Shown here one piece after another: positions 18,406 to 44,454 of a DNA stretch of 64,000 nt; the first letter of the stretch is position 1, and each line of letters starts with the position of its first letter. The notes below the pieces were generated by a model. That model saw only the letters and a list, made by a program, of their open reading frames with translations, did no database searches and was not told where the DNA came from. The position numbers and the translations under genes were made by a program. Source of the DNA: Alphaproteobacteria bacterium (lineage in GTDB: Bacteria; Pseudomonadota; Alphaproteobacteria; CACZRW01); the NCBI GenBank assembly GCA_017507765.1, contig JAFWAG010000032.1:20919-84918 (forward strand). Direction: 5' to 3'.

Positions 18406-19146
18406 TTATTTCTTCTTTTCGGCTCTGATTTTCTTGGCAAGCTCGGGAAGTTCTTTTTCATCAAAAGCTCCGCCTTTCATTTCATCGCCGATAAAGAAAA
18501 CCGGAATGCCGGATACTTGCAGTTTTAAAGCCAATGCACGGTTGGCGTCCAAAATGTCTTGAATCTCTTTGGAAGCCATATCTTTTTGCAATTTAACCAT
18601 ATCAAGATTATGTTTTTTGGCGATTTCCAAAGCTTTCTTTTCGCCAATCTGACCTTTGTGTTCCATGAAGGCTTTATGAATCTCTTCATACTTGCCCTGC
18701 TTTTTTGCGGCAAGAGCGACTTTGGAGGCAGCCCCCGAACCTTCCATTAAAATCGGCATTTCTTTTAATACCCATTTCGTGTTGCCGTCTTTTTTCACAA
18801 AATCAATTACTTTCGGGAACATGACTTTGCAATAACCGCAGTTGTAATCAAAAAACTCTACGATAACAACGTCGCCCTTAGGATTGCCGATAATCGGGTC
18901 TTTAGGGTTGTCGGAAAGCTCTTTTTGGGAGGCTTTGATTTGCTTTTTAAGGGCAGCCTCTTGCTCTTTGAGCATTTTTTCCTGCAAAGCGTCTAAGGAC
19001 GAGGCAAGCTTTTCCGGATTATCTTTAATATAATCGGCAACTATCTTTTCGATAGCTTTCTTCTGTTCCGGCGTAAAGGTTTGAGCGTCGGCGGTTCCCA
19101 TGGCTGCCGAGATAAAAATTACTGCGGCAATAAATAAACGTATCAT
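18406..19146 (-). CDS. Periplasmic thiol:disulfide oxidoreductase, DsbA family
   Basis: 246 aa; signal peptide; thioredoxin CxxC motif in FFDYNCGYCKVMF; coiled N-terminal segment. Confidence 0.75.
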   Translation of the reverse strand: MIRLFIAAVIFISAAMGTADAQTFTPEQKKAIEKIVADYIKDNPEKLASSLDALQEKMLKEQEAALKKQIKASQKELSDNPKDPIIGNPKGDVVIVEFFDYNCGYCKVMFPKVIDFVKKDGNTKWVLKEMPILMEGSGAASKVALAAKKQGKYEEIHKAFMEHKGQIGEKKALEIAKKHNLDMVKLQKDMASKEIQDILDANRALALKLQVSGIPVFFIGDEMKGGAFDEKELPELAKKIRAEKKK

Positions 19147-24755: not shown

Positions 24756-25910
24756 ATGATTAAAGTTTTACGATTTTTCGCCATCTTTTTGCTGTTTGCG
24801 GCATCTGCTCCTGCTGTTTCCCAAGCCGGAGAGTCAAGCATTCAGAATATAAGAGTGGCGAATCATGCCGATAACGTTATGCGCTTGGTTATCGATTTAT
24901 CCGAAAAAAGCGGATATAAAGTTTTTACCTTAAAAAATCCCGAACGCTTGGTCATTGATATTGAAAATACGGATTTTGCCGAAGACCTTAATCCTCAGCT
25001 AGCGAATATAAATTATTTGAATAAACTCCGATTTGGAAAAATGGAAAACGGAGTCGGGCGCATAGTCGCCGAAGTAGACTTCCCGCCAGAAGTAAAAAAA
25101 GATTTTATTTTGCCGCCCCAAAGCGGTTTTGCATGGCGTTTGGTTGTCGATGTGGAAACCACCAAAAGCGATTACGCCGAAGTTGAAAAGAAGAAAGAAG
25201 TTGCCGCAAAGCCTGTTCGTAAACCTTTGCTGATGATTGATGCAGGACACGGCGGAAAAGATTGCGGCGCTATCAGTATAAGCGGCTCGTACGAAAAACA
25301 CTTAACTTTGAAAATGGCAAAAGAATTACGGGATAAGCTGTTAAAAACCGGACGATATAATGTAATGATGACCCGCAGTGATGACAGAGCATTGGCCTTA
25401 CGTCAACGGGTGCAAATGGCAAGAAATGCTAAAGCTGACGTATTTATATCTATTCATGCGGACAGTGCGCATAATTCTGCGGCAAAGGGGCTTTCCGTTT
25501 ATACCTTATCCGAAAGAGCTTCCGACAGTGAAGCGGCGGCTTTGGCGGAACGAGAAAACAAAGCCGATGCGGTAATAGGTATGGATTTCAGCGATAAACC
25601 CCAAGACGTTGCAACCATTTTAATTGATTTGGTACGCCGTGATACGATGAATAACTCTTCTATTCTGGCGGATTATATGGTCGTAGAAATGAAAAAGAAT
25701 GTAACCGTTCTGCCAAACACGCATCGCTTTGCCGGATTTGCGGTTTTAAAAGCTCCGGATATACCTTCGGTGTTGGTAGAAATCGGTTACTTATCAAACC
25801 GCAAAGAAGAGCTTATGCTCCGGCGACCGGAATACAGAGAAAAACTCGCTTCTTCCATGGTGAAAGCTTTGGATAAGCTGTTTAAAAACCACAATATTAT
25901 GGATAAATAA
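24756..25910 (+). CDS. amiC: N-acetylmuramoyl-L-alanine amidase with N-terminal AMIN domain (AmiC-like)
   Basis: 384 aa; signal peptide; AMIN-like beta domain; amidase_3 motifs MIDAGHGGKDCGAI, ISIHADS, VLVEIGYLSN. Confidence 0.85.
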   Translation: MIKVLRFFAIFLLFAASAPAVSQAGESSIQNIRVANHADNVMRLVIDLSEKSGYKVFTLKNPERLVIDIENTDFAEDLNPQLANINYLNKLRFGKMENGVGRIVAEVDFPPEVKKDFILPPQSGFAWRLVVDVETTKSDYAEVEKKKEVAAKPVRKPLLMIDAGHGGKDCGAISISGSYEKHLTLKMAKELRDKLLKTGRYNVMMTRSDDRALALRQRVQMARNAKADVFISIHADSAHNSAAKGLSVYTLSERASDSEAAALAERENKADAVIGMDFSDKPQDVATILIDLVRRDTMNNSSILADYMVVEMKKNVTVLPNTHRFAGFAVLKAPDIPSVLVEIGYLSNRKEELMLRRPEYREKLASSMVKALDKLFKNHNIMDK

Positions 25911-25915
25911 ACTAA

Positions 25916-27799
25916 CTACCTTACCGGCGGAACGTTAAACTGGGCGATATAGCCAGGCTTTATCGTTGTATAGCCATAACGCATATTGCCGGTTTCTATC
26001 AGATATCTTTGAACGCCGGTCATCTGGGCAACCAACGGATAGAAATCTTTTGCCTGAACATCACGGCGCTGATAGTTCATTAAATACAATACGCAACCTT
26101 GACTCTTTTCGGCAATACCGCAACGCTGACGACCACGAGGCACTTCCGGATTGGAAACTACACCACTTAAACCGGAAGGCTTGTTGGAACAAGAATCACC
26201 GCCGCCCATAAAGGTGCCTAAAATAATTCCAAACAGTAAAATACCGCCGAAAATAAAGCTTATGTACTTAGTCGTAAGTACCTTGGGCGGAAGATTAAAG
26301 CGAACGGCAAAATTATCATCATATAAACCGGAAGACGCTGTTTCTTGGGCTTCTTGGTTCGCCAGTTCTTCCGCTGTACGAGCGAAATTATGGCTTGGCT
26401 TTTCTTCCTTATGGTCAGGAAGTTCTTTGGCAATTCCCATAGGCTTATCCGATGCCGGAACATGAGGTGCCGGAATAGGAGAAGCAGAAGAAACAGGAGG
26501 AGTTTTTGGTTCTTCTTTGTTATCTGTACGAACTTCTTGGAACATATGCATTGATTTCTGTACCGGAGGTACACCATGACCGCCACCAAGTACCGGAGGA
26601 GGCGCAACACGTTGCCCCAAAGAAACCGGAGGCGGAACTTTCGGCATGGCAGGCTCTGACGGTGCAGATGCAGGAACCGGCGCCGGAGATACAGGAGCCG
26701 GAGTAGCCGGAATAGTCTCAACCGGAGTAGCCGGCGCAGGGGGAACAGGTGCCGGAGTAGCCGGAATAGGCTCAACCGGAGTAGCCGGCGCAGGGGGAAC
26801 AGGCGCCGAAGGAACAGCTTCTGCCTCCATGGCTACGGGGTCAGATGCCGGAGCGGCGGGCATTTCCGGAACAACAGGTTCGGATATTTCTGAAGCGGCA
26901 GGCTCGAGAACTTCTGTAACAGGATTTTCCGGTGCAGCGTCTTCCTGCTTTTGATAGCTTTCCGGCACCGAAATGTCTTCGGCAAAATCATGAATATCCT
27001 TCACGTCTTGCATAGGTGTTGTAAGAGACGGTGTTACTTCGGTGATATTAAATGCCGGCATAGAACTTGGTGCTTGTTCGGGAACCGGTTCAGGTTCAGG
27101 CTCAGGTTCCGGCGTTATTTCTACTTCCGGAGCGGGAGCGGAGTCTTCCTCCAATGCCGGAGCTTCGGCAGGGAGTTCTTCAACCGGTTCAGGCTGAGGC
27201 AAAGCGTCTTCATCTTCATCATCAAAGATTGACGGTGCAGGTTCTGGCGCAGGAAACTCGTTAACTTCCGCCTCAACAGAAACTTCTGCTTCGCTTTCCG
27301 TTTCCGGAGCGGGAACGGAGTCTTCCTCTAATGCCGGAGCTTCGGCAGGAAGTTCTTCAAGCGGCTCTGGCTGAGGCAACGAATCTTCGTCATCAAAGAT
27401 TGACGGTGCAGGTTCAGGTGCAGGAAACTCGTTAACTTCGGATTCCACAGGAGCTTCCGGCTCTGCTTCCGGTTCGGCTGTCGGTTCAGCGGGAGCTTCT
27501 TCCACAGGTTCGGCAATGTCTTCTATGTTTTCTGCGACAGGGGCTGCTTCAATCTCCGCTTCCGGAGTAGAAGCAGACGGTGCGTCCATAACCGGATTTT
27601 CCGGCGCAGGAACAGCTTCCTCTGAGGCAACAGGAGGTATTGTATTCATATCAACGGTCGGTTCTTCAGATGCTTGAGCAACTGCCGATACCGGAGCGGA
27701 AGAAACTGCCGCAGGAGCTTTTACCGCTATGGGGCGCTTGATTACCTTAACCACTTTTTTGATTACATGGGGTCTACGTTTCAAATCCCGCTCGTCCAT
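25916..27799 (-). CDS. Pro/Glu/Ala-rich repetitive protein with a single TM helix near the C-terminus and a small Cys-containing C-terminal domain
   Basis: 627 aa; basic N-terminus; long EP/AP-rich acidic region with internal repeats; TM YISFIFGGILLFGIILGTFMGG at about aa 525-547; about 90-aa C-terminal domain (GRQRCGIAEKSQGCVLYLMNYQRRD...). Confidence 0.5.
   Translation of the reverse strand: MDERDLKRRPHVIKKVVKVIKRPIAVKAPAAVSSAPVSAVAQASEEPTVDMNTIPPVASEEAVPAPENPVMDAPSASTPEAEIEAAPVAENIEDIAEPVEEAPAEPTAEPEAEPEAPVESEVNEFPAPEPAPSIFDDEDSLPQPEPLEELPAEAPALEEDSVPAPETESEAEVSVEAEVNEFPAPEPAPSIFDDEDEDALPQPEPVEELPAEAPALEEDSAPAPEVEITPEPEPEPEPVPEQAPSSMPAFNITEVTPSLTTPMQDVKDIHDFAEDISVPESYQKQEDAAPENPVTEVLEPAASEISEPVVPEMPAAPASDPVAMEAEAVPSAPVPPAPATPVEPIPATPAPVPPAPATPVETIPATPAPVSPAPVPASAPSEPAMPKVPPPVSLGQRVAPPPVLGGGHGVPPVQKSMHMFQEVRTDNKEEPKTPPVSSASPIPAPHVPASDKPMGIAKELPDHKEEKPSHNFARTAEELANQEAQETASSGLYDDNFAVRFNLPPKVLTTKYISFIFGGILLFGIILGTFMGGGDSCSNKPSGLSGVVSNPEVPRGRQRCGIAEKSQGCVLYLMNYQRRDVQAKDFYPLVAQMTGVQRYLIETGNMRYGYTTIKPGYIAQFNVPPVR
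26697..26810. repeat. 57-bp perfect-ish tandem repeat x2 (encodes PAPATPVExIPATPAPVxP)
   Basis: agccggagtagccggaatag(t/g)ctcaaccggagtagccggcgcagggggaacagg(t/c)gcc is repeated back-to-back. Confidence 0.6.
27125..27440. repeat. Two about 140-bp direct repeats (178-bp period) encoding VNEFPAPEPAPSIFDDED..LPQPEP.EELPAEAPALEEDS.PAPE
   Basis: Copies at 27125-27268 and 27303-27440 are about 90% identical. Confidence 0.6.
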
Positions 27800-27831: not shown

Positions 27832-29070
27832 TTATTGGCTATTGCCTTCTTTGATAATCCGGACAATCTTCGGGCTTAATACCATGGCAATTTCCGAATT
27901 GGCGTATTGTGGTCCTAAGATATCCGAAGGTATGCCGATGATAAGGAAGTTATCACCGATTTCCGATGCAAAAGACGGGAAATTGGTTATTTCACCTTTG
28001 GTTGAATCTATGACCAAAGAACCAACAATCTTATCCGTACCTTCAACGGTAGCTTGCGCCAAAACCGATAATTGCGATTCCGGATTTTCTATCTTTCCGC
28101 AACGGCCAACATCAAAACGGGAACGCCAGTTATCCGGAACCATAAAGACACCTTCGGAAACCGGAACTACAGAAGCGTGCTGACCAACAAAATTCAAGAA
28201 ACGGCGAGTGCTGATTTCATTATTTTCCGTAATAATCATACGGCCGATAACGCCTTTGACACTGCTGCGTATGCTGTTCGTGCCATATTTATCAACCAGT
28301 TTCTGCCAATCTATGGTGGAAGTTCCAGCATAAGGAGTAATCCGGAAAACCCGTACATCAAAAGCAACAATGTTTGGTTCGGTATCAAAAACTTTTATCA
28401 GTTTTTCAACTTTCTGCTGAACTTCTTTGGTACCAAGGAAGGTGATGGTTTTATTATCCCAGTCGGCAACAACATCACGAATGCCCGCACCTCTTAATGC
28501 GTCCAGAACCGCAATCATAACCGGACGGGAATCAGGAACCTGTAATTTCCACTGGTTATGCCGCATAAGGCGAAGCGTTTTTGTTTCGGCATTATAGCGG
28601 TAATAAACACCCGAAGTGTTAGCAATATTATTCAAAACCGTACCAAGTTCGCCCTTCATATTTTTGCCGGACAAAACCGGATAAGGGCCTTTTTCCGCAA
28701 CGACTTTAATTCCGGCTTCCTTCACCAATTTTAAAAAGACTTTATCGGCACTTAATCCGGCGAAAGAAAATCCGGTTACTTCGTAACGAGGCAAGGCATC
28801 GGAAGCTCTGGCTCCGCTGAGTTTAAATGCAGACTGGCGGAAAGGAACCGTGGTGATGATGTCCTGTTCATTAAAACGGACAAAACAACGGCTGGCAGCT
28901 TCCAAACTAAACAACTCTGCCGTCTTGGTAGTGCGGGGAGCAAGCAATTTCGTATCTTTAAAAACTCCGGGAGCAACCGCATCGGCGGCAACTGTCTCGC
29001 TTGAAAAAACGGCTAAACCGGCAACCAATCCTAAAACGGCGAACAGTTTTTTATAAATCTTGTCTGACAT
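27832..29070 (-). CDS. Periplasmic/outer-membrane protein with a secretin-N (NolW-like) domain and a possibly degenerate secretin-like C-terminal motif
   Basis: 412 aa; signal peptide; segment VMIAVLDALRGAGIRDVVADWDNKTITFLGTKEVQQKVEKLIKVFDTEPNIVAFDVRVFRI fits the secretin N1 pattern (...D.rtNsli..g.......v..lI..lD....v.iev.i.ev); C-terminal GIPSDILGPQYANSEIAMVLSPKIV resembles the secretin C-terminal 'PiLG..F.....EL.vf.TP.iv' motif. Confidence 0.45.
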   Translation of the reverse strand: MSDKIYKKLFAVLGLVAGLAVFSSETVAADAVAPGVFKDTKLLAPRTTKTAELFSLEAASRCFVRFNEQDIITTVPFRQSAFKLSGARASDALPRYEVTGFSFAGLSADKVFLKLVKEAGIKVVAEKGPYPVLSGKNMKGELGTVLNNIANTSGVYYRYNAETKTLRLMRHNQWKLQVPDSRPVMIAVLDALRGAGIRDVVADWDNKTITFLGTKEVQQKVEKLIKVFDTEPNIVAFDVRVFRITPYAGTSTIDWQKLVDKYGTNSIRSSVKGVIGRMIITENNEISTRRFLNFVGQHASVVPVSEGVFMVPDNWRSRFDVGRCGKIENPESQLSVLAQATVEGTDKIVGSLVIDSTKGEITNFPSFASEIGDNFLIIGIPSDILGPQYANSEIAMVLSPKIVRIIKEGNSQ

Positions 29071-29244: not shown

Positions 29245-30150
29245 CTATGCGTCCGGAGCAGTATTGTTATCACTTGCCGGTTCAAAATCACCCAAATCCG
29301 GTATCGGTTCAAAGCCATCTGGAGCAGGACCGATTGGACCTTCGTCTTCATCTGTGGCCAAATCCCCCAAGCCGGCACGGATTTTTACAACATCAATCTC
29401 TTCATCAACCATTTCCGGAGGTGCGTTGTCGGCAAGTTCTTTTTTAAAGTCAGATAAAAGCTTGGCAAAAGCCTCTTCCTTGCCGGGGAACTTTGCATCA
29501 ACAATGGCTTTATAGTCATCATTATCGGAAATTGCTTCACCAAAGCCGACGATTTCGTCCAAAACGTCCAGAACATACCCATAATACTTATAATGGCTCA
29601 TTTCCATACCGCCAAGCTGAACACAGCGAGCGCCGACCCTTGAAATCGTTTGATCATAATAATCTTTAAGACGCATAAAATGGTCAAAGTTCCATAATAA
29701 TTCTTCCGAAAACTCCGGTGAAGGTTCCGGAACAGGTTCGTCGTTTACCGATGCTTGTGTTTCGCCTTCCGGCATATCGGCGACCAAAATCTTTAACTTT
29801 TCCGTAACGGCCTTGCCGGCGTCGCCGAAAATGGCAAGCCAATATTCCAAAACCGGCAGTCGTTCACTGATATGCGCTTTATCGACACCATCTGCTTCCA
29901 AAAGACGGTTGGCTTCGTCCCACGCCAAAACACCGTTTTCATAATCCAATGCCCGCTGGAAATTAGCTCTGGAAGTATCTCCGTCCGGCGGAGGAAGCTC
30001 GGCAAGCAAAGAAGGAATGATATCTCGCCAGTTGTTACCAAAGCTCTGCTCTGCCGCAGTGGACAAACGAGTCAAAACTTCTATGTCATCTTGATAAGCA
30101 AGAAGCAGAGGAATTAGCTGCGTCAGGGCTTTTCTTTCATCTTCGGTCAT
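29245..30150 (-). CDS. Hypothetical acidic cytoplasmic protein
   Basis: 301-aa ORF; strongly acidic (DE-rich) C-terminal third; no TM or signal peptide. Confidence 0.45.
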   Translation of the reverse strand: MTEDERKALTQLIPLLLAYQDDIEVLTRLSTAAEQSFGNNWRDIIPSLLAELPPPDGDTSRANFQRALDYENGVLAWDEANRLLEADGVDKAHISERLPVLEYWLAIFGDAGKAVTEKLKILVADMPEGETQASVNDEPVPEPSPEFSEELLWNFDHFMRLKDYYDQTISRVGARCVQLGGMEMSHYKYYGYVLDVLDEIVGFGEAISDNDDYKAIVDAKFPGKEEAFAKLLSDFKKELADNAPPEMVDEEIDVVKIRAGLGDLATDEDEGPIGPAPDGFEPIPDLGDFEPASDNNTAPDA

Positions 30151-30245: not shown

Positions 30246-33200
30246 CTATGCTGCTCGACCTAAATCCAATCGGACTTTTACACCTTTGGAAGAGGCAAAA
30301 ACCAAACATGGACCGGTAGCTTTCTTCCTTTTCTTTGATTTATCCTTTAACCAGAAAGATGCACCCGTATTTAAAGGCTTTTCTCGAACCGGAGAAATTA
30401 TAACTTTTTCGATAATCGTATTTGTGGCTAGGTTCTTATAATCGACAGGCTCGGAAATATCCTCTTCAGAAACGGCGGAGACAGTTTCGGCAGCAGTTTC
30501 TGTTTCCTTTGCTTCCGGCTCTTCTTTGGAGACAGTAACCGGTTCGCTTGCTTCTGCCTCAGGTTCTGTTTTCGGAACTACAGGCTCGTCAATTTGTACG
30601 GTCGGTTCATTTGCTGCTTCGGAGTAGTCAATATCAATAGCAACGGTTTGTTCCGGTATTAAAGGAATGGCCGAAGGACGCATCGGAGTTGCAAAAGAAA
30701 CCGGATCAAGCATTTCCATTTCTTCGTCAAAGATTAAATCTTCACTGGTAAGATTTTCATCAAAATACAAATCTTCGGGAAGAGGTGTGGCATAAGTCGA
30801 TGAAACATCGCTACCGAAGGAAGATATAACCTCATCAAGATAGGCATCAACCGTAAACTCTGCAGCATCGGCGGTATCAGCAAAGTATAAATCTTCTTTA
30901 ATCGGTTCCGGTTCGGGAACAACTTCTTTGACGGCTTCGACCTTGGGTTCGGATACAACAGGTACCGGTTCTTGGGCGGTTTCGGAAAGTGCCTCTTGTA
31001 TGGCTTCGACTTCTTCTACAGGTTCCGGCTCGGTGGCGGCAAGCTCTTCCGGTTCGGTTTCAAGAACGGGTATATCTTCTTGGGCGGCTTCAATCTCAGA
31101 TACCTGCGGTTCGGCTTGCTCATAAACAGCCTCTTCATCAGCACTTGCCTGCAAGGCTTCAAACTCTGAGGCAGAAACCGTGATTTCATTACCGTCTTGG
31201 TCAACGGTTATGTATTCGTATTCATACTCATATTCGGCATCATCGGAAACATCTGCTTCGCTTACAACTTCCTCTGCTGTTACCGCTTCAGCTGTGAAGT
31301 CAAGTTCTCCGGATTGGTCGTCAACATAAACAGTGTCTTCGCTTTCTTCCGTTTCGGCGGTAAGGGCGGCGGCTTCTATTTCTTCTGCGGTTTCGGCAGT
31401 TAAGGCAAAGCCATCATCTTTGGCAACCGGAGCTTCACTTATAACTTCCAGAACTTTTGCAGGTTCAGCCGTGAAATCAAGTTCGCCGGACTGTTCATCA
31501 ACAAAAACAGGCTCGGAAGGTTCTGCTTCGGTTTCAATGGCGGTTGAAGCAAGTTCTTCCTCTGTTTGCGGAGTTAAAGTAAAGCCGTCATCTTCGGCAA
31601 CCGGAGCTTTGGTATCATTTTCCGTGATAACTTCATATTCGACCGCTTCTGCTTCCGCTTCAAGTACAGGCTCCGGTTCAACTTCCGGCATCGCTTCGGG
31701 CAATGCTTCTTCCCAAACTGCTTCCGGTTCCGGCTCGGGTTCAGTGACGGCAAGCGGTTCCGGTTCGGGTTCGGCGGTCTCTTGTATGGCTTCGATTTCT
31801 TCTACAGATTCCGGCTCTGGTTCCGGTTCGGAGATTACTTCTTCCCAAACTTCTTCCGGTTCAGGTTCGGGTTCAGGCTTGGGCATTACCACGAATTCGT
31901 CTTCATCAAAAGAACCGTAATCCGGCTCTAAGTATGTATCATCGTACATATCCGAAGCGGAAATATCTTCTTCGTATACTTCTTCCGCCTCTGCGCTTTC
32001 CTCTTCAAAATCTTCGGCGCTGACGTATTCGTATTCAACGTTTTCACGTTCAACCATTTTTTCCAAAATGGAGCTTAAAACCTGACTGGTTTTTTCCTGA
32101 CTGGCAACCAACATTTCCATAACGTTGCGATTGTCATTACCCGCAGAGACCGGCAAACCGGTAACCACAGCCAAAGCATCAGAGACTATCTGCGCAGTCT
32201 TTTCCTGACTTTGGGCAAGCATAGCGGCAATTTCTTTGATTGCGGCGTCTTTATCTTCTTCCGGTTCGTCCTTTTCTTTACTGGCGGTTAAAGCATCGGA
32301 AATGATATGAGCGGTTTTTTCTTGGCTTTCGGCTAACATAGCCGCTATTTCTTTGATTGCGGCGTCTTTGTCTTCTTCCGGCTCGTCCTTTTCTTTACTG
32401 GCGGTTAAAGCGTCAGAAATAATCTTTGCGGTTTTTTCCTGACTTTCGGAAAGCATGGAAGCGACTTCTTTCAAGTCTTCGTTATGTTTTTCTTCCGGTC
32501 GGTTTAAGGTGGCTTTTACGGCTTCGGAAATAATTTGAGCCGTTTTTTCCTGACTTTCTGCCAACATATCGGCAAAATCATGGATATTTCCTCCGCTATC
32601 GCTTACTTGCACCGGAGGACGTTTAGTTAACGCTTCGCCCAAAGCTTTGGAGATAATTTCCGAAGTACTTTCCTGACTTTTTACCAAAGCATCGGCAACG
32701 GCGGAAGCTATGGCATCTGCGGTATTGCCCGCAGAAGCCATGGGAGGATAATAACCGTCGTCATATTCCTCTACATATTCGTATTCTTCGTCTTCATCGC
32801 CATCTTCGCCTTCTTCGGAGTTTTCATATCCTTCTTCATCGGAAACACCTTCGCCCTCTTCGTCTCCCTTTTTGCGTTTGCGGCGTTTTTTCTGATGAGC
32901 GGTAAAGAAATTACTTTGGGCTTCCTGTAATGCGGCGGTTATCTTGGTTATATCTTCAGCAGAAGCATTGCGGTTTTGCGCTGCGGCTAAGGTTTTAGTC
33001 AACTGTTCGACCTGAGCCATAGATTGCTCTTGCATCTTTTCTGCGGTCTGCTGATGACTTAAAGAAATGGCTTCCGCAATTATCTTTGCTCTGGCCTTTT
33101 CCTCTTCCAGTTTTTCTTCATCAATCTCTATCTCTTCTTCAACGACAATGCCTCGCTGTTCCTGAAGATAGGCAATATAACCACGAACGTCGGCACTGAA

Positions 33201-33431
33201 AGGAAGCTTAGAAAGCTCTTCCTTCGTTTCCGGCGTAATGTTTAAAAGCATTTCGTTATAACGTTCTTGAGCTTCGGGACTTAAAACCGAAAGCTGACGG
33301 AAGATATTTATAAACTTTTGAGCGCGATCACGGTTGGTTTCTGAGGTAGCTCCGTCTCCGCCCCCTTCGGTAACCCCGAGGAACTTCCTTTTCCAACGAT
33401 TTAAATCTGACAAACGTGTAGATTTAGCCAT
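30246..33431 (-). CDS. Giant highly acidic repeat protein (candidate secreted effector/surface protein) with a basic C-terminal tail
   Basis: 1061 aa; three internal repeat families (39-aa ESQEKTAxIISDAL units x6; about 60-aa xDDGFxLTxxTxEExxxxAxxTExEx...VDxQSGELDFTAE x2; EPEPEP tracts); C-terminus WLKDKSKKRKKATGPCLVFASSKGVKVRLDLGRAA is net positive. Confidence 0.55.
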   Translation of the reverse strand: MAKSTRLSDLNRWKRKFLGVTEGGGDGATSETNRDRAQKFINIFRQLSVLSPEAQERYNEMLLNITPETKEELSKLPFSADVRGYIAYLQEQRGIVVEEEIEIDEEKLEEEKARAKIIAEAISLSHQQTAEKMQEQSMAQVEQLTKTLAAAQNRNASAEDITKITAALQEAQSNFFTAHQKKRRKRKKGDEEGEGVSDEEGYENSEEGEDGDEDEEYEYVEEYDDGYYPPMASAGNTADAIASAVADALVKSQESTSEIISKALGEALTKRPPVQVSDSGGNIHDFADMLAESQEKTAQIISEAVKATLNRPEEKHNEDLKEVASMLSESQEKTAKIISDALTASKEKDEPEEDKDAAIKEIAAMLAESQEKTAHIISDALTASKEKDEPEEDKDAAIKEIAAMLAQSQEKTAQIVSDALAVVTGLPVSAGNDNRNVMEMLVASQEKTSQVLSSILEKMVERENVEYEYVSAEDFEEESAEAEEVYEEDISASDMYDDTYLEPDYGSFDEDEFVVMPKPEPEPEPEEVWEEVISEPEPEPESVEEIEAIQETAEPEPEPLAVTEPEPEPEAVWEEALPEAMPEVEPEPVLEAEAEAVEYEVITENDTKAPVAEDDGFTLTPQTEEELASTAIETEAEPSEPVFVDEQSGELDFTAEPAKVLEVISEAPVAKDDGFALTAETAEEIEAAALTAETEESEDTVYVDDQSGELDFTAEAVTAEEVVSEADVSDDAEYEYEYEYITVDQDGNEITVSASEFEALQASADEEAVYEQAEPQVSEIEAAQEDIPVLETEPEELAATEPEPVEEVEAIQEALSETAQEPVPVVSEPKVEAVKEVVPEPEPIKEDLYFADTADAAEFTVDAYLDEVISSFGSDVSSTYATPLPEDLYFDENLTSEDLIFDEEMEMLDPVSFATPMRPSAIPLIPEQTVAIDIDYSEAANEPTVQIDEPVVPKTEPEAEASEPVTVSKEEPEAKETETAAETVSAVSEEDISEPVDYKNLATNTIIEKVIISPVREKPLNTGASFWLKDKSKKRKKATGPCLVFASSKGVKVRLDLGRAA
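31291..31610. repeat. Two about 145-bp degenerate direct repeats (176-bp period) inside the acidic giant gene
   Basis: Copy 1 at 31291-31437 and copy 2 at 31467-31610 (agc(t/c)gtgaa(g/a)tcaagttc(t/g)ccgga...ggcaaccggagctt). Confidence 0.55.
32100..32720. repeat. About 5-6 tandem copies of a 117-bp (39-codon) repeat inside the acidic giant gene
   Basis: Recurrent ...gcggttttttc(c/t)tg(a/g)ctttcgg(a/c)(a/t)a(g/a)catagc(g/c)gc(a/t)atttctttgattgcggcgtcttt(a/g)tcttcttccgg(t/c)tcgtccttttctttactggcggttaaagc(a/g)tc(g/a)gaaat...; the two central copies are near-identical and the outer ones degenerate. Confidence 0.6.
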
Positions 33432-33568: not shown

Positions 33569-34636
33569 TTAAGCCAGCGAAATGTATACGATTTTATGCA
33601 AAACTTCACCGGCAGAGATTTTTACTCTTTCGTCCGGATTAAGCTGAAGACCATAGATATTTCCTTCGCCATCTTCTCTCAGGCTGAGCAATTTTACCGT
33701 ATTTTCCGCAGTGTATAACAGACCGAGGTCTCCGGGACCTGCCTCTTTACCGGGGTCAACAACAAATATCGCCCGAGCCGGAAGGAAAGTTCCCAAACGG
33801 CGAGAGGAAGATATGCTGACTGCATAGGCTTGATGCGGGTTAGAAACGGACGGAGGACACATGATTGCACCGGACGGATTGTTTTTATCAATAATGATAT
33901 CTCCGTTATCACCAGGTTTGCCGTAAACATTTAAGGAAACTTCACTGCGTTCCCGAGATTTAAGCCCCATACGGCCAATCGGCAAATCAGCGTAAGAGTT
34001 CTTTGCCGAAGTTACGGCACGGAACTTTGCATCTCCGGGCTGAATAAACTCTTCCAAAGCTCCGGTCTTATCCAAATCATAGACTTTGAGCTGAAGCTCT
34101 TCCGGTGTAAAACCAAGTGCCAAGGAAATATCCGAAAACTCTTTTTGGGTAACTTCTCTTTGACCCATTTCTATCCGGTGGTAAACCGAAAGCGTCAAAC
34201 CGGCTGCCGCTGCAACTTCCGCCAAAGTTAAATCCTTTTGCCCGCGAAGATAACGGAAACCGGCACCCATAGTCTTTATACCGCTTCGTTCATTGATTTT
34301 GCTGCGACGTTCCTGTTCTTGCCGCCAAGCAGCTACGACTTCCGGCTGAGACGTGGCTTCGTTGACAAAAATGTCCTGAGGATTGCATTTCAGAAAATCC
34401 GCAACTCTGACTAATTGCTCTTTATCTATCCGGCGGTATCCTTTTTCAATTTTGCTGACCGCAGAAAGGCTGATGCCTAAGAAATCGGCAAGCTCCTGCA
34501 TCGAAAGATTGCGGATACGGCGATATATTCTTATCTGGTTCGGAAATATAATTTCTTCCATGGTTCTTCCCCTTAATGATAAATCATGCAAAAACCCTTT
34601 TAAACACGGGATTTTATGCCGTAACTTTAACAGCAA
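33569..34636 (-). CDS. Transcriptional regulator with two XRE-type HTH domains and a C-terminal LexA/CI-like (peptidase S24-like) domain
   Basis: 355 aa; HTH1 IRIYRRIRNLSMQELADFLGISLSAVSKIEKG; HTH2 FRYLRGQKDLTLAEVAAAAGLTLSVYHRIEMG; C-terminal beta-rich segment ending ...TVKLLSLREDGEGNIYGLQLNPDE...GEVLHKIVYISL resembles the S24 fold, but the canonical GxSM Ser motif is not obvious. Confidence 0.6.
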   Translation of the reverse strand: MLLKLRHKIPCLKGFLHDLSLRGRTMEEIIFPNQIRIYRRIRNLSMQELADFLGISLSAVSKIEKGYRRIDKEQLVRVADFLKCNPQDIFVNEATSQPEVVAAWRQEQERRSKINERSGIKTMGAGFRYLRGQKDLTLAEVAAAAGLTLSVYHRIEMGQREVTQKEFSDISLALGFTPEELQLKVYDLDKTGALEEFIQPGDAKFRAVTSAKNSYADLPIGRMGLKSRERSEVSLNVYGKPGDNGDIIIDKNNPSGAIMCPPSVSNPHQAYAVSISSSRRLGTFLPARAIFVVDPGKEAGPGDLGLLYTAENTVKLLSLREDGEGNIYGLQLNPDERVKISAGEVLHKIVYISLA

Positions 34637-34680: not shown

Positions 34681-36387
34681 TTATGAATTGCGATCTGCTT
34701 CGTCGTTAAAGTGGCGATTCCAACGGTCGGCAGCATTGCGGGCAATGTTCTTAGCGCTAAATCTTTGCTTGGCAGAGGTTTTAAACTTATCTTTAAGATT
34801 TTCGCCAAAATTATTCTGAATATTCTTAAGGTTATCCTTAACTCTTTGCGGAGCGGCAGCAATATTATTTCCAAACGTTTTAACCTTATCTCCGGCGAAG
34901 TCTTTAAACTGTTTCGGCATGGCTTTAGCCCGACTTTTAGCATCATTAGCAAACTTCTTCACCGAAGCTCTGGCAGCTGCTCGTCCAGACTTGGTAGCCA
35001 AAGAAGTTATTGCTTTAGCGGCTTTGGCGGCACCGGCTGCCGCAGTGGCCGCTCCCTTGGCAGCAAAACCGACAGCTGCCGCACCACCCGTAGCAACCGT
35101 GGTCGCAAGCATGGCAACCGTAACCGCCGCCTGAACGGTGGTGGTAACCATGGCCGCCATTTTTGCGCCCACAGCCGCACCGATATTCGTACTTTGCAAT
35201 TGGGAATCAATGGAAACAAAATGGTTGGCTACGGCTTCCGACTTACTTAACAACATTAAAGCGATAATAGCGATAGCGAGGAATAAAAGCCAATCTACAC
35301 CATTGACATAAATATGCTGATATAACTGCTGAACCTGATCATTATTTAACATACTGTCAAGCTCTTCGGAACGGCCGATAGATTCCATAACTATCTTTAA
35401 AATCAACGCCATGCCTATGGCAAGAGCAAGCAATGCGACCAGTGCGTGCAGGAATAAATCCCAAGCTTTCTTCGTATACTTCCGTGTTATCGGGAAAACC
35501 CATGCGACCATAAGCAACGGCAACAGCATGGTTACAAAGCTGATACGAATGACAAAATCGATAACTCGGAAGGAAAAGCTTAAAGTAATTATAAAGAAAA
35601 CCAGCATTACCAAGAGACCGATAACAAACATACCCATATCGGGAATCTTGATTATCCACAAGTCTACTCGTCCCATGGAATAGCAATAAATACAGTTGCC
35701 GAGTGCGGTTCCTTTGGCGGCTTCTATATACATAGAGCGAATTACACAGCTTAGAGCGCTTTTAATCTGAGGAGACAGCGCCAGATGAGAAGAAGAGTCT
35801 CCGTAAACAACGTTGCCTTTTGAATCATATGAAATCGAAGAGCTTTCAGAGTTCTGAAACTGTTGGCAAATATCGTTTTTGATAAGTCCGGAAGCAATCG
35901 CAGTATCCGCACTTTGGACATTTAAGTCCGTAGATAAAATCCCCAAAGTAAGCTCTGTCGCCATGGAAACTACCGGCGAAACGACAAGGTCAAAAGCCTT
36001 TTGCGTCGGAATGGTCAAAATCGCAGCTATTAACGTCGTACGGAAAAAACATTTACCGATTTCGGTGAAAAAACCTTCCGGAGCTTGATACTTATAATTC
36101 ACAAAATACATACCGAAATGCCACAGTATCCAAAGCCCTAAACCAATTATCAGCAAATATAAGGACGGTTTTTTCAACGTGTTGTAACAAGCCGTAACAA
36201 CATTGTTGACGGCATCAAAAATCATATCGACAAAGGTACAAATAAGACAGCTGCTATAAAGCTCTGACATTACTTCGGTAGCTGTTTTACACGCAGCATA
36301 AGCAGAATCGGGAAACAAGCATACGCAGACAAGCGCAATTGCAAACGCTATTTTTCCGACCGTATTTTGTCCCTTTTTCGTAAACAT
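34681..36387 (-). CDS. virB6: VirB6/TrbL-like type IV secretion polytopic membrane protein, paralog 5
   Basis: 568 aa; signal peptide; CxxC motif (SSCLICTFVDMIFDAV) followed by a W-rich TM (GLGLWILWHFG) as in the four paralogs upstream; about 6 TM; Lys/Ala-rich hydrophilic C-terminal tail. Confidence 0.65.
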   Translation of the reverse strand: MFTKKGQNTVGKIAFAIALVCVCLFPDSAYAACKTATEVMSELYSSCLICTFVDMIFDAVNNVVTACYNTLKKPSLYLLIIGLGLWILWHFGMYFVNYKYQAPEGFFTEIGKCFFRTTLIAAILTIPTQKAFDLVVSPVVSMATELTLGILSTDLNVQSADTAIASGLIKNDICQQFQNSESSSISYDSKGNVVYGDSSSHLALSPQIKSALSCVIRSMYIEAAKGTALGNCIYCYSMGRVDLWIIKIPDMGMFVIGLLVMLVFFIITLSFSFRVIDFVIRISFVTMLLPLLMVAWVFPITRKYTKKAWDLFLHALVALLALAIGMALILKIVMESIGRSEELDSMLNNDQVQQLYQHIYVNGVDWLLFLAIAIIALMLLSKSEAVANHFVSIDSQLQSTNIGAAVGAKMAAMVTTTVQAAVTVAMLATTVATGGAAAVGFAAKGAATAAAGAAKAAKAITSLATKSGRAAARASVKKFANDAKSRAKAMPKQFKDFAGDKVKTFGNNIAAAPQRVKDNLKNIQNNFGENLKDKFKTSAKQRFSAKNIARNAADRWNRHFNDEADRNS

Positions 36388-36396
36388 TTTCTTCTC

Positions 36397-36618
36397 TTAT
36401 GCGTCCTTTTCTTCGGCGGTTTCTTTAGGTTGAAGAGACGGAAGCTTAGCCTTCTTTGTCTTCCAAGTCAGCCATCCGGCGGCAGCAAAACTTAAAATTA
36501 TCACTGCTCCGGAGGTTATATAAACCAACCTGCTGTCAAGCAATCCGGAAAGTCCGGTTGCTCCAAAAATAATTATCAGAACTATAAAACTAAGATAGTA
36601 TACCAGATTTCTTAACAT
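36397..36618 (-). CDS. Small 2-TM membrane protein embedded in the virB6 array (possible VirB3/VirB2-like accessory subunit; unassigned)
   Basis: 73 aa; two hydrophobic helices then a charged tail; tight spacing (20 bp after paralog 4 stop, 9 bp before paralog 5 start). Confidence 0.4.
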   Translation of the reverse strand: MLRNLVYYLSFIVLIIIFGATGLSGLLDSRLVYITSGAVIILSFAAAGWLTWKTKKAKLPSLQPKETAEEKDA

Positions 36619-36638
36619 CTTAGTCCCCTTTTTTCCAA

Positions 36639-38099
36639 TTACGGCTGAGCATTATTGCCTCCGCCTTTTTTCATTGCCGCCAACATGGCTAAACCAACAC
36701 CGCCTTGAGCTATCAATGCACCCGCTCTCATAAGGCGGCTCATCGCCTTACTGAATACCGCCGAGTTTGCTTTTGCTCCCGCAAACTGCGCCGCCATGCG
36801 GTTCATCGTGCCGATAAGCTTTATCAAATAAAGACCCAAGAATATCATCAAAAACATAGCTATCGGGAAGTTAAGGTTCGATTCAACAAACTTTGGATTG
36901 GCATCAATAATCTTTCCCGTCTCCATATAGCATATATCACCTACGGAACTTTTATCTCCGACCATAAGCTCATCAGATACACATTTCCAAAGGCTGTCGG
37001 ATTTATAGCCAACTACGCAAGTTTCCTTTTCTTCACCAATAGTGGTTTTATATTTTATACAGGTTCTGGGCATAACAACGCCAGAGGACGGATCCAACAT
37101 TTCATCTTGTCTGGAAACATATCCTTGTAAAACTTCCGGTTGATTCAAAATCAGCTTTTCCGGATCAAAGATATCCAGCTTCATAGTAAACTGTACCATG
37201 ATTTCTATCGCTAAGATTAGGAAGATAGCTATCATCACTATTTGCATAAACGTGGATAGGAAAATGTTCCAACCGACAATGGCGTATTGCCGCAAAAGCT
37301 TAAACGGCCAAAAGGCGATAAATATCGGCAGTAAGACAAATGCAATGCCAAGCTTGAACAAGCCGTCAACAATATAAAACGGGAAAAGAAAGTTCAAAAC
37401 ACCGAAAACAAGGAAGATGCAAATACCGAAAACTACGGCAATAAAGTCTCCGCTAGCTATCATTTTCTGGGCAAAAAAGTTACCGTACACCATGCGGGTA
37501 TGCATCTTTGCTATCAGACAGGAAAACGCATCGGATACGCCTTGCTGTAAAGCGTGGCCGCTGTCAATAACCATACTGTCAAAGGTATTGTTACAAGCAC
37601 TGTAATTAGTTCCATAACTGCCAAAACCGGAATTGATTACCGCCAGCGATAAATCAATAAATCCTTGGAAGACCGGCACAATCGTATAGCTTATCAGAGC
37701 AAAAATCGTATCTGCGCTCATCAGCAAAACGCCGCAGCATAAAACCGCAAAACTGGTTTTAAGCGAGTCGGTCCAGAACTGATTAACATCAGGCATTTTA
37801 TAGCTTAAAAACAATTTGCCGACATGGAAGAGTATCCAAATCGCAAAGCTTATCGCCATTAAAGCAAGCGCACCGTTCGCTATTTCATGATAAAAGACGA
37901 TAATCAAACTGTCCAAAGCGGCAAAAATCGTTTTGAAGATTGAGCAGCTCCAACAATGGCTCATATAGTCTTTTTCCAGTTCTTCCAAAGAAACGTCATA
38001 ATCCTTTGGGTTGCAGCCGGACAAAAGCAAGCAGGCTACTATTCCCACAAACAGGAAAAGCAGTTTAAAAAGCATCTCTTTTTTTTGTTTTTTATCCAT
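36639..38099 (-). CDS. virB6: VirB6/TrbL-like T4SS membrane protein, paralog 4 (lipoprotein-type signal peptide)
   Basis: 486 aa; LLSGC lipobox; MSHCWSCSIFKTIFAALD motif; multiple TM. Confidence 0.65.
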   Translation of the reverse strand: MDKKQKKEMLFKLLFLFVGIVACLLLSGCNPKDYDVSLEELEKDYMSHCWSCSIFKTIFAALDSLIIVFYHEIANGALALMAISFAIWILFHVGKLFLSYKMPDVNQFWTDSLKTSFAVLCCGVLLMSADTIFALISYTIVPVFQGFIDLSLAVINSGFGSYGTNYSACNNTFDSMVIDSGHALQQGVSDAFSCLIAKMHTRMVYGNFFAQKMIASGDFIAVVFGICIFLVFGVLNFLFPFYIVDGLFKLGIAFVLLPIFIAFWPFKLLRQYAIVGWNIFLSTFMQIVMIAIFLILAIEIMVQFTMKLDIFDPEKLILNQPEVLQGYVSRQDEMLDPSSGVVMPRTCIKYKTTIGEEKETCVVGYKSDSLWKCVSDELMVGDKSSVGDICYMETGKIIDANPKFVESNLNFPIAMFLMIFLGLYLIKLIGTMNRMAAQFAGAKANSAVFSKAMSRLMRAGALIAQGGVGLAMLAAMKKGGGNNAQP

Positions 38100-38118
38100 G
38101 CTTTACTTTCCTTTACAG

Positions 38119-40581: not shown

Positions 40582-40672
40582 CGCTTTGTCCTTTTAAAAA
40601 GCCTCCTATCCTTCAAATATTATAACCTTTTTCCCGTTCCTTTAGTATGACAGTTTTTTGATTCCTATCCCT

Positions 40673-42715: not shown

Positions 42716-42723
42716 TTCAACCT

Positions 42724-44454
42724 TTACCCCGGATCCGAAAACAGCTTTTTACCCGTATTGGCAACCAACGAAGCACTTGACTGACCTATGGTAGCCAACG
42801 AACGACCTGCCGAAGCACCCATTTTATCGCCGACAGCATTACCAAAACCGGCACCCGCAACCGAAGAAAACTCTAAGCTGACATTGTCGACAATACCAAC
42901 AATTAAAATCGCAAAGACGAAACAAGCCAAAGCAACCAACATACTGGTACCGGAAAGATTCAAGTTCTTTGCCAGTTCTTCTATGTGGTTTAAGTAAAAC
43001 AGCGTGCGGATATCGTTAACTCCCGCCTGACCGGCATCGCCTTGGAATGCCATCATAACCAGTAAAATTGCCAACGCTAAGATAATGGCCAAGATGATAA
43101 ACATCATCACGATATGAACCAGCGATTTAAATCCTTGGCGTGCATAGCAAGATGTTGACGGGAATACCCAACAAATGATTAACAACGGCAGTAAAACACA
43201 TAAAATGCCAAGCCGCAAACAAGCGTCCAAAACCTTAAACGTGAAAATAAGCAGTAATAAGAAACTGGCGAGCCAGATTAAAGCTCCGGCGATGAAAGTT
43301 GGAATATCCGGATAGGAAATTACCGCATAGTGGTTAGCACCCTTGGCATAACAAACTATACACGAACCGACGGATATACCGAAGCTAAGCTCCTCTTGCA
43401 TATTTTTTACCATGCACATCAAAGCGGCTTTGATTTCCGGATTCAAGGCGCCGTACAAGGTTGCTTTATCTCCGCTTTCTTGAGCTGCGGCCATGGCGGC
43501 TTCGGCATCTTCGGCAACGTTATCCGTACAGTTGGTAAGAGAAGCAACATCTCTGCCGCCGCTTAAACGTCCCAAAGTTATAGATTTGTACATCTCGTCA
43601 AGCTGCCTATCCGCATCAACGCTTATCGCAACGCCGCCGGCAACAATAACAGCTCCGAAAGTAACAAAAACCGGATTTGCGGTTACGCTGCCGCCAAGCA
43701 TTGAAGCTCCGCCGACGGTACTGACGTAATCGGCGGCCTTGGAAATAGCGGCGATTTCCTCTTTGCGAGTTTCCATTTGCTCTTCCGTCCAGCGTTCGCC
43801 GGTCTTGCCGTCAACCAAATAGCTTTTGCCATACTCTGCCGACAAAGCCGCCTGCCCTCCGCTTTCATTGGCAAAACTGCGCACAACTACCGTAGAAAAC
43901 TCACTGGCGCCGACAATTATCGGCGATATAACAACTCCGGTAAAATGGCCTATGTTCAAGCTTAAAAACGCAAATGCAACTATCGCCTTTAAAAAGGTTC
44001 TTGCCATTTTTGTCCAAAACTCTTCCGGATCTTGGGGGACAAAGGCGCTGATGTGTCCTGCTATATGATACAAAATCCAAAACGCAAGCAAAAGCGCAAG
44101 CAAAGCCATAAAACCAGTTTTGGAAGCTTCAAAAACTGCGTAAGAAAGCTCATTTATCGCATCAAAAATGATGCTGAACATACGGCATGACCAACAATCT
44201 AAAAGATTGTCCGATAATACTTTGGCAGAATTGGGACAGGGGCCGGCAAAAAAGTTTAAAAAAGATTTGACCGCATCGTTAATGCTGCCTCCGGTCGCAT
44301 CGACAACGCCGTCAATAAAGCCCGCCGCCATTTGACCAAGGCTTTCCAAAAACGTCATGTCATCGCTTTGGGCGCGAGCCGTCCCCGGCATCAGCAAAAC
44401 AAGCAGTGCAAACAGTAATCCGGGGAAGCCGGCTATAATCTTAAACTTTGTCAT
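42724..44454 (-). CDS. virB6: VirB6/TrbL-like T4SS membrane protein, paralog 1
   Basis: 576 aa; signal peptide MTKFKIIAGFPGLLFALLVLLMPGTARA; LLDCWSCRMFSIIFDAIN motif; multiple TM. Confidence 0.65.
   Translation of the reverse strand: MTKFKIIAGFPGLLFALLVLLMPGTARAQSDDMTFLESLGQMAAGFIDGVVDATGGSINDAVKSFLNFFAGPCPNSAKVLSDNLLDCWSCRMFSIIFDAINELSYAVFEASKTGFMALLALLLAFWILYHIAGHISAFVPQDPEEFWTKMARTFLKAIVAFAFLSLNIGHFTGVVISPIIVGASEFSTVVVRSFANESGGQAALSAEYGKSYLVDGKTGERWTEEQMETRKEEIAAISKAADYVSTVGGASMLGGSVTANPVFVTFGAVIVAGGVAISVDADRQLDEMYKSITLGRLSGGRDVASLTNCTDNVAEDAEAAMAAAQESGDKATLYGALNPEIKAALMCMVKNMQEELSFGISVGSCIVCYAKGANHYAVISYPDIPTFIAGALIWLASFLLLLIFTFKVLDACLRLGILCVLLPLLIICWVFPSTSCYARQGFKSLVHIVMMFIILAIILALAILLVMMAFQGDAGQAGVNDIRTLFYLNHIEELAKNLNLSGTSMLVALACFVFAILIVGIVDNVSLEFSSVAGAGFGNAVGDKMGASAGRSLATIGQSSASLVANTGKKLFSDPG

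Follow-up and report, generated by a model that had tools for sequence, protein, structure and literature searches.

A trimmed secretin homologue in a conserved gene cassette beside type IV secretion genes of gut Alphaproteobacteria

The gene at positions 27832–29070 (minus strand) of a 64,000-nucleotide stretch from an Alphaproteobacteria bacterium (contig JAFWAG010000032.1; the window, in what follows, is this whole stretch) had been taken, in a reading of the sequence alone, for an orphan secretin-N-domain protein next to genes of a type IV secretion system (T4SS). We found that its product is a whole secretin homologue over its full length and not an N-domain alone, and that it belongs to a secretin family unrecognised by Pfam and NCBIfam until now. 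Segment counts in alignments show that the members of this compact family lack most of the Gate 1 hairpin, part of Gate 2 and the signature segment of secretins. A gated double barrel is common to secretin structures (PMC10499894), and the compact family is a marked departure from this core. New here are the conserved gate-less family itself, an invariant trio formed by the secretin and two neighbours, which we call X and Y, and the embedding of their gene cassette in a T4SS locus in most species.

Identity and trimming of the compact secretin

The open reading frame (ORF) is a real gene under purifying selection. Relatives of the secretin are carried by at least 585 species-level genomes, as seen in a scan of species-representative genomes, and comparison of the target with its closest relative gave a pN (non-synonymous) of 0.09 against a pS (synonymous) of 0.81, at saturated synonymous sites, i.e. 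a pN/pS of ~0.11; hence, the ORF did not arise by chance. The genomes in question are metagenome-assembled genomes (MAGs) from gut, rumen or faeces, for instance 'Acetobacter sp. CAG:977' and 'Ca. Scatocola'. An AAGAGG motif resembling a Shine-Dalgarno site precedes the secretin ATG by ~10 nt, and 20 columns are invariant in a 37-sequence family alignment, the cysteines C62 and C324 among them. A word-index search returned 76 homologues, every one annotated as 'hypothetical' and all from uncultured Alphaproteobacteria, and a literature search found no earlier description of the family.

Libraries of protein families hardly register this protein. Pfam yielded one sub-threshold match to Secretin_N (E 0.015, 16 bits against a cutoff of 28.2, residues 186–232), while the secretin family PF00263 gave no match to the target even at E ≤ 10 and is absent from the families listed for 37 members scanned at E ≤ 1. 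No secretin model of NCBIfam matched at E ≤ 10, PilN (TIGR02520) and MshL (TIGR02519) included, and sequence and profile searches of the PDB with the secretin family returned nothing meaningful. That PF00263 misses the protein is due to the trimming of its secretin domain, described below.

Fold and profile comparisons, in turn, speak plainly. A monomer model of the target, computed with AlphaFold2 (AF2) on the 37-sequence alignment (predicted local distance difference test, pLDDT, 84; predicted template modelling score, pTM, 0.76), gave 27 Foldseek matches against the PDB at E ≤ 1e-3, all of them secretins, and many of these alignments cover most of the chain. The matches include BfpB of a type IVb pilus (T4bP; the best match, 9u5s_A), InvG, PilQ, GspD, XcpQ, ExeD, PulD, pIV and EscC, and also the N0–N1 crystal structures of XcpQ, EscC and GspD. 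A search of viral folds in BFVD produced few matches, e.g. an f1 gene IV fragment and an Erwinia phage assembly protein, and added nothing. An exhaustive hidden Markov model search with the family profile against 1.84 billion proteins brought up a second tier (E 1e-24 to 1e-14) of proteins with 450–850 amino acids, which score above the PF00263 gathering cutoff, some of them with STN and TcpQ domains too; their nearest models are those of the type IV pilus secretins MshL and PilN, but they stay below those cutoffs. Indeed, profile–profile alignment by hhalign of the compact family with 30 full-length secretins (Prob 100, E 3e-39, 383 columns) runs end to end, from the lipobox region through the terminal strand 'ELVIVLRPRVI'. 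At the C-terminus, 'LIIGIP' pairs with the 'LLGGI/L' motif and 'SEIAMVLSPKIVRI' with the last strand 'SELVIVLRPRVI'. The full-length relatives align to M13 pIV (Prob 97.4); since the compact family itself gave no hhalign alignment with pIV, it was mapped to pIV through these relatives.

Altogether, fold, profile and profile–profile evidence bear out the 'compact secretin' that the sequence-only reading had considered. The secretin N1-like segment it had pointed to is sub-threshold in Pfam, but the Foldseek matches to N0–N1 structures and the hhalign alignment to PF00263 secretins agree on it; no unrelated fold was assigned, and significant fold matches were to secretins only. The protein had been judged too short, at 412 amino acids, for a full GspD or PilQ. 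Length alone is no bar, given that M13 pIV has 426 amino acids and that the built model and S-domain numbering of RcpA end at residue 416 (PMC10499894); yet the secretin domain is trimmed, whereas pIV and the Tad secretin RcpA (~416 amino acids), similar in length and with few N-domains, both keep gates and double barrel (PMC8563730, PMC10499894). Of the C-terminal motif singled out earlier, the homology to the secretin C-terminus holds, while 'PSDILGPQY' reads as a remnant left by the deletion of the signature segment and not as the signature motif. The proposed kinship with T4SS ring components had to be abandoned: no relative of VirB9/CagX, TraK, DotD or VirB7 is found among the Pfam matches or the top 50 Foldseek PDB matches. 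VirB7 has a secretin-type N0 fold within the T4SS outer-membrane complex (PMC12531336), but N0-like T4SS outer-membrane proteins hold single N0-like domains, whereas the target keeps the whole secretin chain with barrel strands.

The chain is ordered as pre-N0 segment, N0, N1/N3 and secretin domain, without an S domain:

27832–29070, minus strand: compact (trimmed) secretin homologue; ORF with ATG start, 412 amino acids
28987–29070, minus strand: signal peptide, residues 1–28, type I-like, cleavage near the TVA–AD junction (read from sequence)
28858–28986, minus strand: pre-N0 segment, residues 29–71, with invariant E57, R61 and C62 (alignment columns; low to moderate pLDDT)
28540–28857, minus strand: N0-like domain, residues 72–177, approximate borders (secondary structure, Foldseek, hhalign)
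28375–28527, minus strand: N1/N3-type ring-building domain, residues 182–232 (sub-threshold Secretin_N, alpha-beta-beta-alpha, hhalign)
27850–28374, minus strand: trimmed secretin domain, residues 233–407 (hhalign, segment lengths)
28069–28107, minus strand: Gate 1 stump GRCGKIENPESQL, residues 322–334, with invariant C324 (column-anchored counts)

The N-terminus reads as a Sec signal, in line with the signal peptide proposed from the sequence: a KK n-region is followed by a hydrophobic core and the TVA–AD site. A strict lipobox motif is found in at least 72 of 78 related loci and a relaxed version in most of the remainder, while the target has none, a type I-like signal standing in its place in the window's subclade. 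This distribution shows a loss of the lipobox in that subclade and an ancestry from lipoprotein-type secretins. An LG-N0-N3-secretin layout, and with it the concept of an LG domain, has been described for the lipoprotein secretin BfpB (PMC12531336); by its position, the pre-N0 segment may correspond to the LG segment. The N0-like domain, whose borders were read off the secondary-structure elements of the model, matches PilQ N0 and XcpQ/GspD N0–N1 in Foldseek and pairs in hhalign with the N-terminal part of full-length secretins. The secretin domain comprises, in this order, the first outer strand, lip hairpin, helix, inner strands, shortened gates and last strand.

A gated inner and outer barrel is the conserved core of all secretin types (PMC10499894). 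To locate the missing parts we relied on landmarks from the cryo-electron microscopy structure of pIV, namely the hinge glycines G267 and G297, Gate 2 at D321–N335 and the E185–R337 salt bridge (PMC8563730). Segment lengths are column-anchored counts, and the pIV landmarks were carried over via the alignment of full-length relatives with pIV (A2):

Gate 1, hinge glycine to hinge glycine: 12 residues in the compact family (37 of 37 members), 30 in full-length relatives (median), 30 in pIV
Gate 2 and next inner-barrel strand: 44 residues in the compact family, 64 in full-length relatives, 58 in pIV
GG motif to last strand (signature segment): 14 residues in the compact family, 33 in full-length relatives, 37 in pIV

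In the AF2 model the Gate 1 region holds short elements only. The deletion in Gate 2 amounts to ~20–22 residues and covers its distal part and the following inner-barrel strand with the conserved Arg (R337 in pIV), and the position of the partner Glu (E185 in pIV) is occupied by Arg in the compact family. Absent as well is the VP-L--IP-LG-LF signature segment, which probably corresponds to the amphipathic helical loop of secretins. The family retains, in conserved form, its outer strands, the lip hairpin, the glycine of hinge 1 and the terminal strand. The two invariant cysteines, C62 in the pre-N0 segment and C324 in the Gate 1 stump, are a gain of the family and occur in distant compact relatives too, which suggests that they form a family-specific disulfide.

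Losses of this kind raise the question whether the protein forms a channel at all. It might be a structural or adaptor protein, periplasmic or tethered to the outer membrane, that works as a disulfide-stabilised monomer or small oligomer. The three deletions do hit elements conserved in all solved secretins (PMC10499894), PF00263 is undetectable, the monomer model has a pTM of 0.76, the invariant Cys pair would connect segments that lie far apart in the chain, and the window's subclade is without a lipid anchor. We nevertheless consider such a scaffold distinctly unlikely, as a mere adaptor would have no need of the elements conserved here (strands of the outer barrel, lip hairpin, glycine of hinge 1, terminal strand), and the N0 and N1/N3 ring-building domains are kept. 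That the gene is the decaying, functionless remnant of a secretin from a lost pilus or phage might be argued from the lost canonical elements and from a cassette in which no partner machinery is recognised. This is scarcely credible: an intact ORF in at least 585 species with a pN/pS of ~0.11 strongly disfavours it, the Gate 1 stump is invariant in length, 20 alignment columns are invariant, and no phage family matches.

The X–secretin–Y trio and its cassette

We compared by BLAST, with the window proteins, 80 species-level loci. They are the best among at least 585 and, being mutually related, do not count as independent events; denominators below are the loci with enough flanking sequence. 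The secretin belongs to a co-directional run of genes located 3' of an array of VirB6-like genes and consisting of a double helix-turn-helix (HTH) regulator, a giant protein termed G, X, the secretin and Y. X lies directly upstream of the secretin in 76/76 loci and Y directly downstream in 74/74, so that neighbourhood conservation, proposed earlier as a check, proved complete for the trio in the surveyed loci. The HTH gene is upstream in 47 of 49 loci, and G, recognised by its conserved N-terminus, in 43 of 49. The partners of the secretin in the window are:

29245–30150, minus strand: X, acidic protein of 301 amino acids (adjacency, alignment A4)
25916–27799, minus strand: Y, bitopic inner-membrane protein of 627 amino acids (adjacency, hydropathy, alignment A3)
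30246–33431, minus strand: G, giant acidic repeat-rich protein with 26% D+E
33569–34561, minus strand: cassette regulator with two HTH_3 domains and a C-terminal domain, 330 amino acids from ATG (Pfam)

X has neither signal peptide nor transmembrane segment and consists of a conserved helical core of ~130 residues with an optional N-terminal domain; it found no match in Pfam, in a profile search of the PDB or in PHROGs. An X homologue (hhalign Prob 99.3, E 3.6e-20) is also encoded directly upstream of P0147, a very divergent compact secretin whose start overlaps with it and which lies far outside the profile scores of the gut-clade family; thus, the pairing of X with a secretin extends beyond that family.

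Y begins with a disordered and variable cytoplasmic region rich in Pro, Glu and Ala, which takes up ~500 residues in the window copy; the whole protein has 627 amino acids here versus ~170–300 in most relatives. A conserved juxtamembrane motif, GLYDDNFA, precedes the transmembrane helix (26198–26281), and a periplasmic domain of ~85 residues (25919–26167) follows, which contains two invariant cysteines and is modelled by AF2 at pLDDT 88–96. A profile search of the PDB with Y was empty, and its AF2 model had no Foldseek match below E 0.96. By hhalign, Y shows no kinship with the gene after the secretin in plasmid type IV pilus (T4P) modules nor with the secretin neighbours of sphingomonads and P0190-type contigs (see below), and comparison of X with the giant proteins of these latter two contexts likewise revealed no kinship. 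PilM-PilN/O/P-PilQ and GspL/M/C-GspD are alignment complexes built from cytoplasmic, bitopic and secretin components; the cytoplasmic X, the bitopic Y and the secretin may resemble them in logic, not in sequence.

G is without transmembrane segments, and its conservation is confined to the N-terminal ~90–130 amino acids. Many G homologues end in a D/E-P-Y motif ~8–10 residues before the C-terminus; the window copy has a basic tail instead (30246–30420, net +10 over the last 50 residues), and the DPY motif is found in no frame. This basic tail is not conserved, and a C-terminus of the T4SS-effector kind was rejected for G. In-frame tandem DNA repeats with periods of 54, 177 and 117 bp underlie both the cytoplasmic part of Y that is rich in Pro, Glu and Ala (26677–26808 and 27125–27439) and the acidic central portion of G (32173–32471). 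The HTH regulator is the best-conserved gene of the cassette, with 47–57% identity in BLAST across loci.

Pfam searches with sub-regions of G, X, Y, the HTH regulator and a small ORF with two transmembrane segments gave nothing, and PHROGs held nothing for secretin, X, Y or G, the HTH regulator matching generic repressor families only. With PHROGs negative except for this generic HTH, no adjacent pI/Zot-type ATPase or phage assembly genes and a chromosomal context of housekeeping genes, an origin from a prophage or inovirus was rejected. Promoter and terminator scans of the cassette gave signals no better than in shuffled sequence.

Beside the cassette, an AmiC-type amidase with an AMIN domain (24756–25910, plus strand) converges on Y, and a DsbA/ScsC-like oxidoreductase (18406–19146, minus strand) is encoded nearby. 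Both could matter for a disulfide-bearing periplasmic module, or be coincidental; most other loci showed neither gene next to the cassette.

The type IV secretion locus and a pilus ancestry

The following T4SS genes surround the cassette in the window:

9646–11847, minus strand: VirD4 coupling protein (Pfam T4SS-DNA_transf, TraG-D_C, TrwB_AAD_bind)
34681–44454, minus strand: five VirB6-like genes at 42724–44454, 40673–42715, 38119–40581, 36639–38099 and 34681–36387 (Pfam, BLAST)
53079–54056, minus strand: VirB11 (Pfam T2SSE family)
54096–62591, minus strand: giant VirB10 of 2831 amino acids (Pfam)
62588–63997, minus strand: VirB9/CagX with a C-terminal SPOR domain (Pfam)

Three of the VirB6-like genes have sub-threshold TrbL/VirB6 matches in Pfam (19–25 bits against a cutoff of 25.9), and the proteins of the other two (568 and 486 amino acids; 34681–38099), without a Pfam match, are polytopic and divergent paralogues by BLAST. 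In VirB10 the TrbI domain (residues 2529–2722) comes after ~19 beta-flower (Bflower/Bflower_2) and DUF3659 repeats, a repeat expansion which we take to be reminiscent of CagY from the Helicobacter Cag T4SS. Five VirB6 copies and scattered vir islets are characteristic of the vir homologue (rvh) system of Rickettsia (PMC2653234). The window shows both features, and its five VirB6 genes are tandem and divergent. Our literature search found no description of a secretin homologue in rvh or Cag loci, and to our knowledge none has been described there.

A VirB6-like array is situated directly upstream of the cassette in 44 of 48 loci, at secretin identities of ~40–50% to the window, and a convergent operon of VirB11, giant VirB10 and a second giant protein follows Y in 33 of 57, with VirB9 where the locus reaches far enough. 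The cassette is often flanked by T4SS genes on both sides, and in most species it is sandwiched inside a T4SS locus. The earlier statement that genes of type II (T2SS) or type III (T3SS) secretion systems, Tad or T4P are missing nearby was confirmed among the window ORFs of at least 150 amino acids, where VirB11 is the only T2SSE-family match.

Several features of these loci stand apart from the question of the secretin. Many related genomes have two adjacent giant genes where the window has one, VirB10. The fusion of VirB9 to SPOR, a septal peptidoglycan-binding domain, is unusual for a T4SS core protein, and in other loci, L006 among them, a Peptidase_M23 domain is joined to a VirB6 paralogue. 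Between two VirB6-like genes lies an ORF of 73 amino acids (36397–36618, minus strand) with two transmembrane segments, a GGGG-type ribosome-binding site and no significant Pfam match, whose place is taken by a 71-amino-acid gene in loci L001 and L002; its product is a candidate for a small T4SS subunit akin to VirB2 or VirB3. An ORF of 427 amino acids directly upstream of VirD4 (11857–13140, minus strand; no Pfam match) may encode a further T4SS-associated protein. Two contigs with an alphaproteobacterial VirB6-cassette-VirB11 locus, L038 (CAVCSV010000005.1) and L056 (CAVIWQ010000001.1), are filed under 'Limosilactobacillus gorillae' and 'Bacteroidaceae bacterium' assemblies, probably through binning contamination.

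The nearest full-length relatives by sequence, which are unclassified secretins, are found for instance on a Rhodoferax ferrireducens T118 plasmid (WP_011458651), in Methylibium (RPME01, WP_011831771) and on a metagenomic contig (P0156), and their genes are ordered as secretin, small protein, T2SSE ATPase and T2SSF platform. These modules sit on conjugative megaplasmids in Rhodoferax (mating-pair-formation type MPF_T) and Methylibium (MPF_F), and P0156 adjoins TraU and TrbC. Given such conjugative settings, the parent lineage was already a companion of T4SS loci. As sequence comparison shows, the compact secretin descends from the lipoprotein-type secretins found in those type IVb-like pili that accompany conjugative T4SS loci. 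The secretins of the plasmid T4P modules have full gates and signature segment and score above the PF00263 cutoff, unlike the compact family. TcpC and R64 PilN are lipoprotein secretins. Among BfpB, TcpC and PilN, BfpB is the top fold match and has the same domain order, and a lipobox is present in most compact members, not in the window copy; in contrast to these three, the target is without Gate 1, part of Gate 2 with its inner strand and the signature segment, falls below every NCBIfam secretin model, and has no TcpQ/BfpG, PilO, ATPase, platform or pilin beside it.

Such an ancestry raises the possibility that the target serves the clade's type IVb pilus, or another type IV filament machine encoded elsewhere in the genome, as an additional or auxiliary secretin. 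The clade does have a BfpD-like ATPase, 72–100% conserved across Alphaproteobacteria MAGs of the same kind, and in one locus (L047) this ATPase (PDB 8dze, E 3.5e-90) and a platform protein lie 5.5 kb upstream of G-X-secretin. Yet pntAB- and galU-like housekeeping genes, read from N-terminal sequences, separate the two gene sets there. On three long contigs we found a complete T4bP cluster with a TcpQ-domain protein, a PF00263 secretin (534–539 amino acids), PilO, a protein of 530–546 amino acids, ATPase, platform and bundlin-type pilin:

L098, 4799–13343: T4bP cluster
L099 and L100, 2746–13387: T4bP cluster

In L099 and L100 this cluster adjoins two TrbC/VirB2-like genes and a VirB11-like ATPase. 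In hhalign, the resident pilus secretin aligns well with the full-length relatives, at Prob 99.2, and reaches no more than Prob 8.9 with the compact family; hence, the compact gene is no recent copy of it. The clade's pilus has its own canonical secretin. The sequence-only reading had named a pilus system with partner genes elsewhere as a finding that would speak against it; a T4bP cluster does exist, and since it comes with its own secretin, an orphan pilus secretin with partners elsewhere is unlikely. Apart from L047, VirB11 is the only T2SSE-family ATPase detected within 10 kb in the 80 loci, as judged with BLAST references that included no pilin or platform query. Moreover, the gate deletions fit a dynamic pilus conduit poorly, and in the two plasmid T4P modules that were compared, the neighbours of the secretin show no kinship with X or Y. 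In view of the pilus cluster's own secretin, TcpQ partner and PilO, we regard an auxiliary pilus secretin as very unlikely, its ancestry from T4bP-type secretins notwithstanding.

A candidate envelope module

We thus turn to the T4SS itself, to which synteny suggests a link of the cassette. Our proposal, which we put forward tentatively and at a little less than an even chance, is that a gate-less ring derived from T4bP secretins forms, with Y and X, an envelope module serving the T4SS. The secretin homologue would assemble into a ring associated with the outer membrane, either constitutively ungated or plugged in a new way, which would be lipid-anchored in most species and soluble and exported in the window's subclade. 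The periplasmic domain of Y would link this ring to the inner membrane, X would dock on the conserved cytoplasmic motif of Y (GLYDDNFA), and X, Y and ring together would make up a trans-envelope scaffold that works with the unusual T4SS and not with a pilus, T2SS, T3SS or phage. The stronger claim, that such a ring, anchored by Y and X, has been recruited as a structural part of the T4SS in a large gut-alphaproteobacterial clade, is possible but doubtful.

Several points weigh against this proposal. With VirB9 and VirB10, the T4SS is already equipped with what an outer-membrane channel normally requires. The pTM of 0.76 of the monomer model could mean a compact, non-canonical packing of domains, and the ring, its membrane insertion, the disulfide and the contacts between X, Y and secretin are all putative. 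One locus (L003, 37% identity) has an intact cassette with no VirB6 or VirB11 within 10 kb, and the upstream VirB6 array is absent in 4 of 48 loci (L021, L029, L047, L090). Furthermore, compact, Cys-bearing, short-gate relatives of 377–399 amino acids are encoded on Sphingosinicella and Erythrobacter megaplasmids and on P0190-type metagenomic contigs, where they directly follow an unrelated acidic protein of 1100–1300 amino acids, which in the sphingomonad copies has N-terminal transmembrane segments:

L010, 7867–12924: compact secretin after giant acidic protein
L011, 2369–7187: compact secretin after giant acidic protein
L096, 1467–6004: compact secretin after giant acidic protein

These sphingomonad and P0190-type contexts contain no X or Y and no T4SS genes in the flanking sequence fetched, and PLSDB typing assigns no mating-pair-formation system to the sphingomonad plasmids. 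Trimmed secretins are therefore found outside the gut clade as well, and not in T4SS loci alone, which tempers any reading of the family as a T4SS accessory. The accessory role suggested by the sequence-only reading is therefore kept in part: the conserved synteny (44/48 and 33/57) fits it, and the related compact secretins with no T4SS genes in view leave it conjectural.

The same observations feed another explanation, namely that the cassette is a self-contained envelope device, e.g. for surface display or release of G or X, whose place beside the T4SS is inherited gene order. It would account for a discrete cassette with its own regulator that stays intact away from T4SS genes in L003, for compact secretins that elsewhere pair with other giant proteins, again with no T4SS genes in the fetched flanks, and for the X–secretin pair in the divergent P0147 lineage. 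The cassette, however, brings no ATPase or other energy source, G and X carry no export signals, so that no route to the periplasm is evident, and adjacency to the VirB6 array, often with T4SS genes on both sides, persists in 44 of 48 loci at ~40–50% secretin identity. On balance we think such an autonomous device unlikely.

In summary, our study defines a secretin family missed by Pfam and NCBIfam and provides names and testable roles for four genes so far called 'hypothetical', namely G, X, secretin and Y, which occur almost throughout an abundant uncultured lineage of human and animal guts. Gates are thought essential for sealing the outer membrane, and a family in hundreds of species with its gates excised is a natural experiment on whether such a ring acts as a scaffold, as an ungated conduit or plugged by a partner. 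A gate-less secretin, and a possible partnership of secretin and T4SS, would surprise specialists. If the module does work with the T4SS, it would be a new building block for expanded T4SSs and would tie together type IV filament machines and T4SSs, two major classes of envelope machinery; it would represent the first natural secretin without a central gate and the first T4SS to use a secretin-derived outer-membrane or periplasmic ring, in a system where a VirB6 array of Rickettsiales type is found together with a giant VirB10 like that of Cag.

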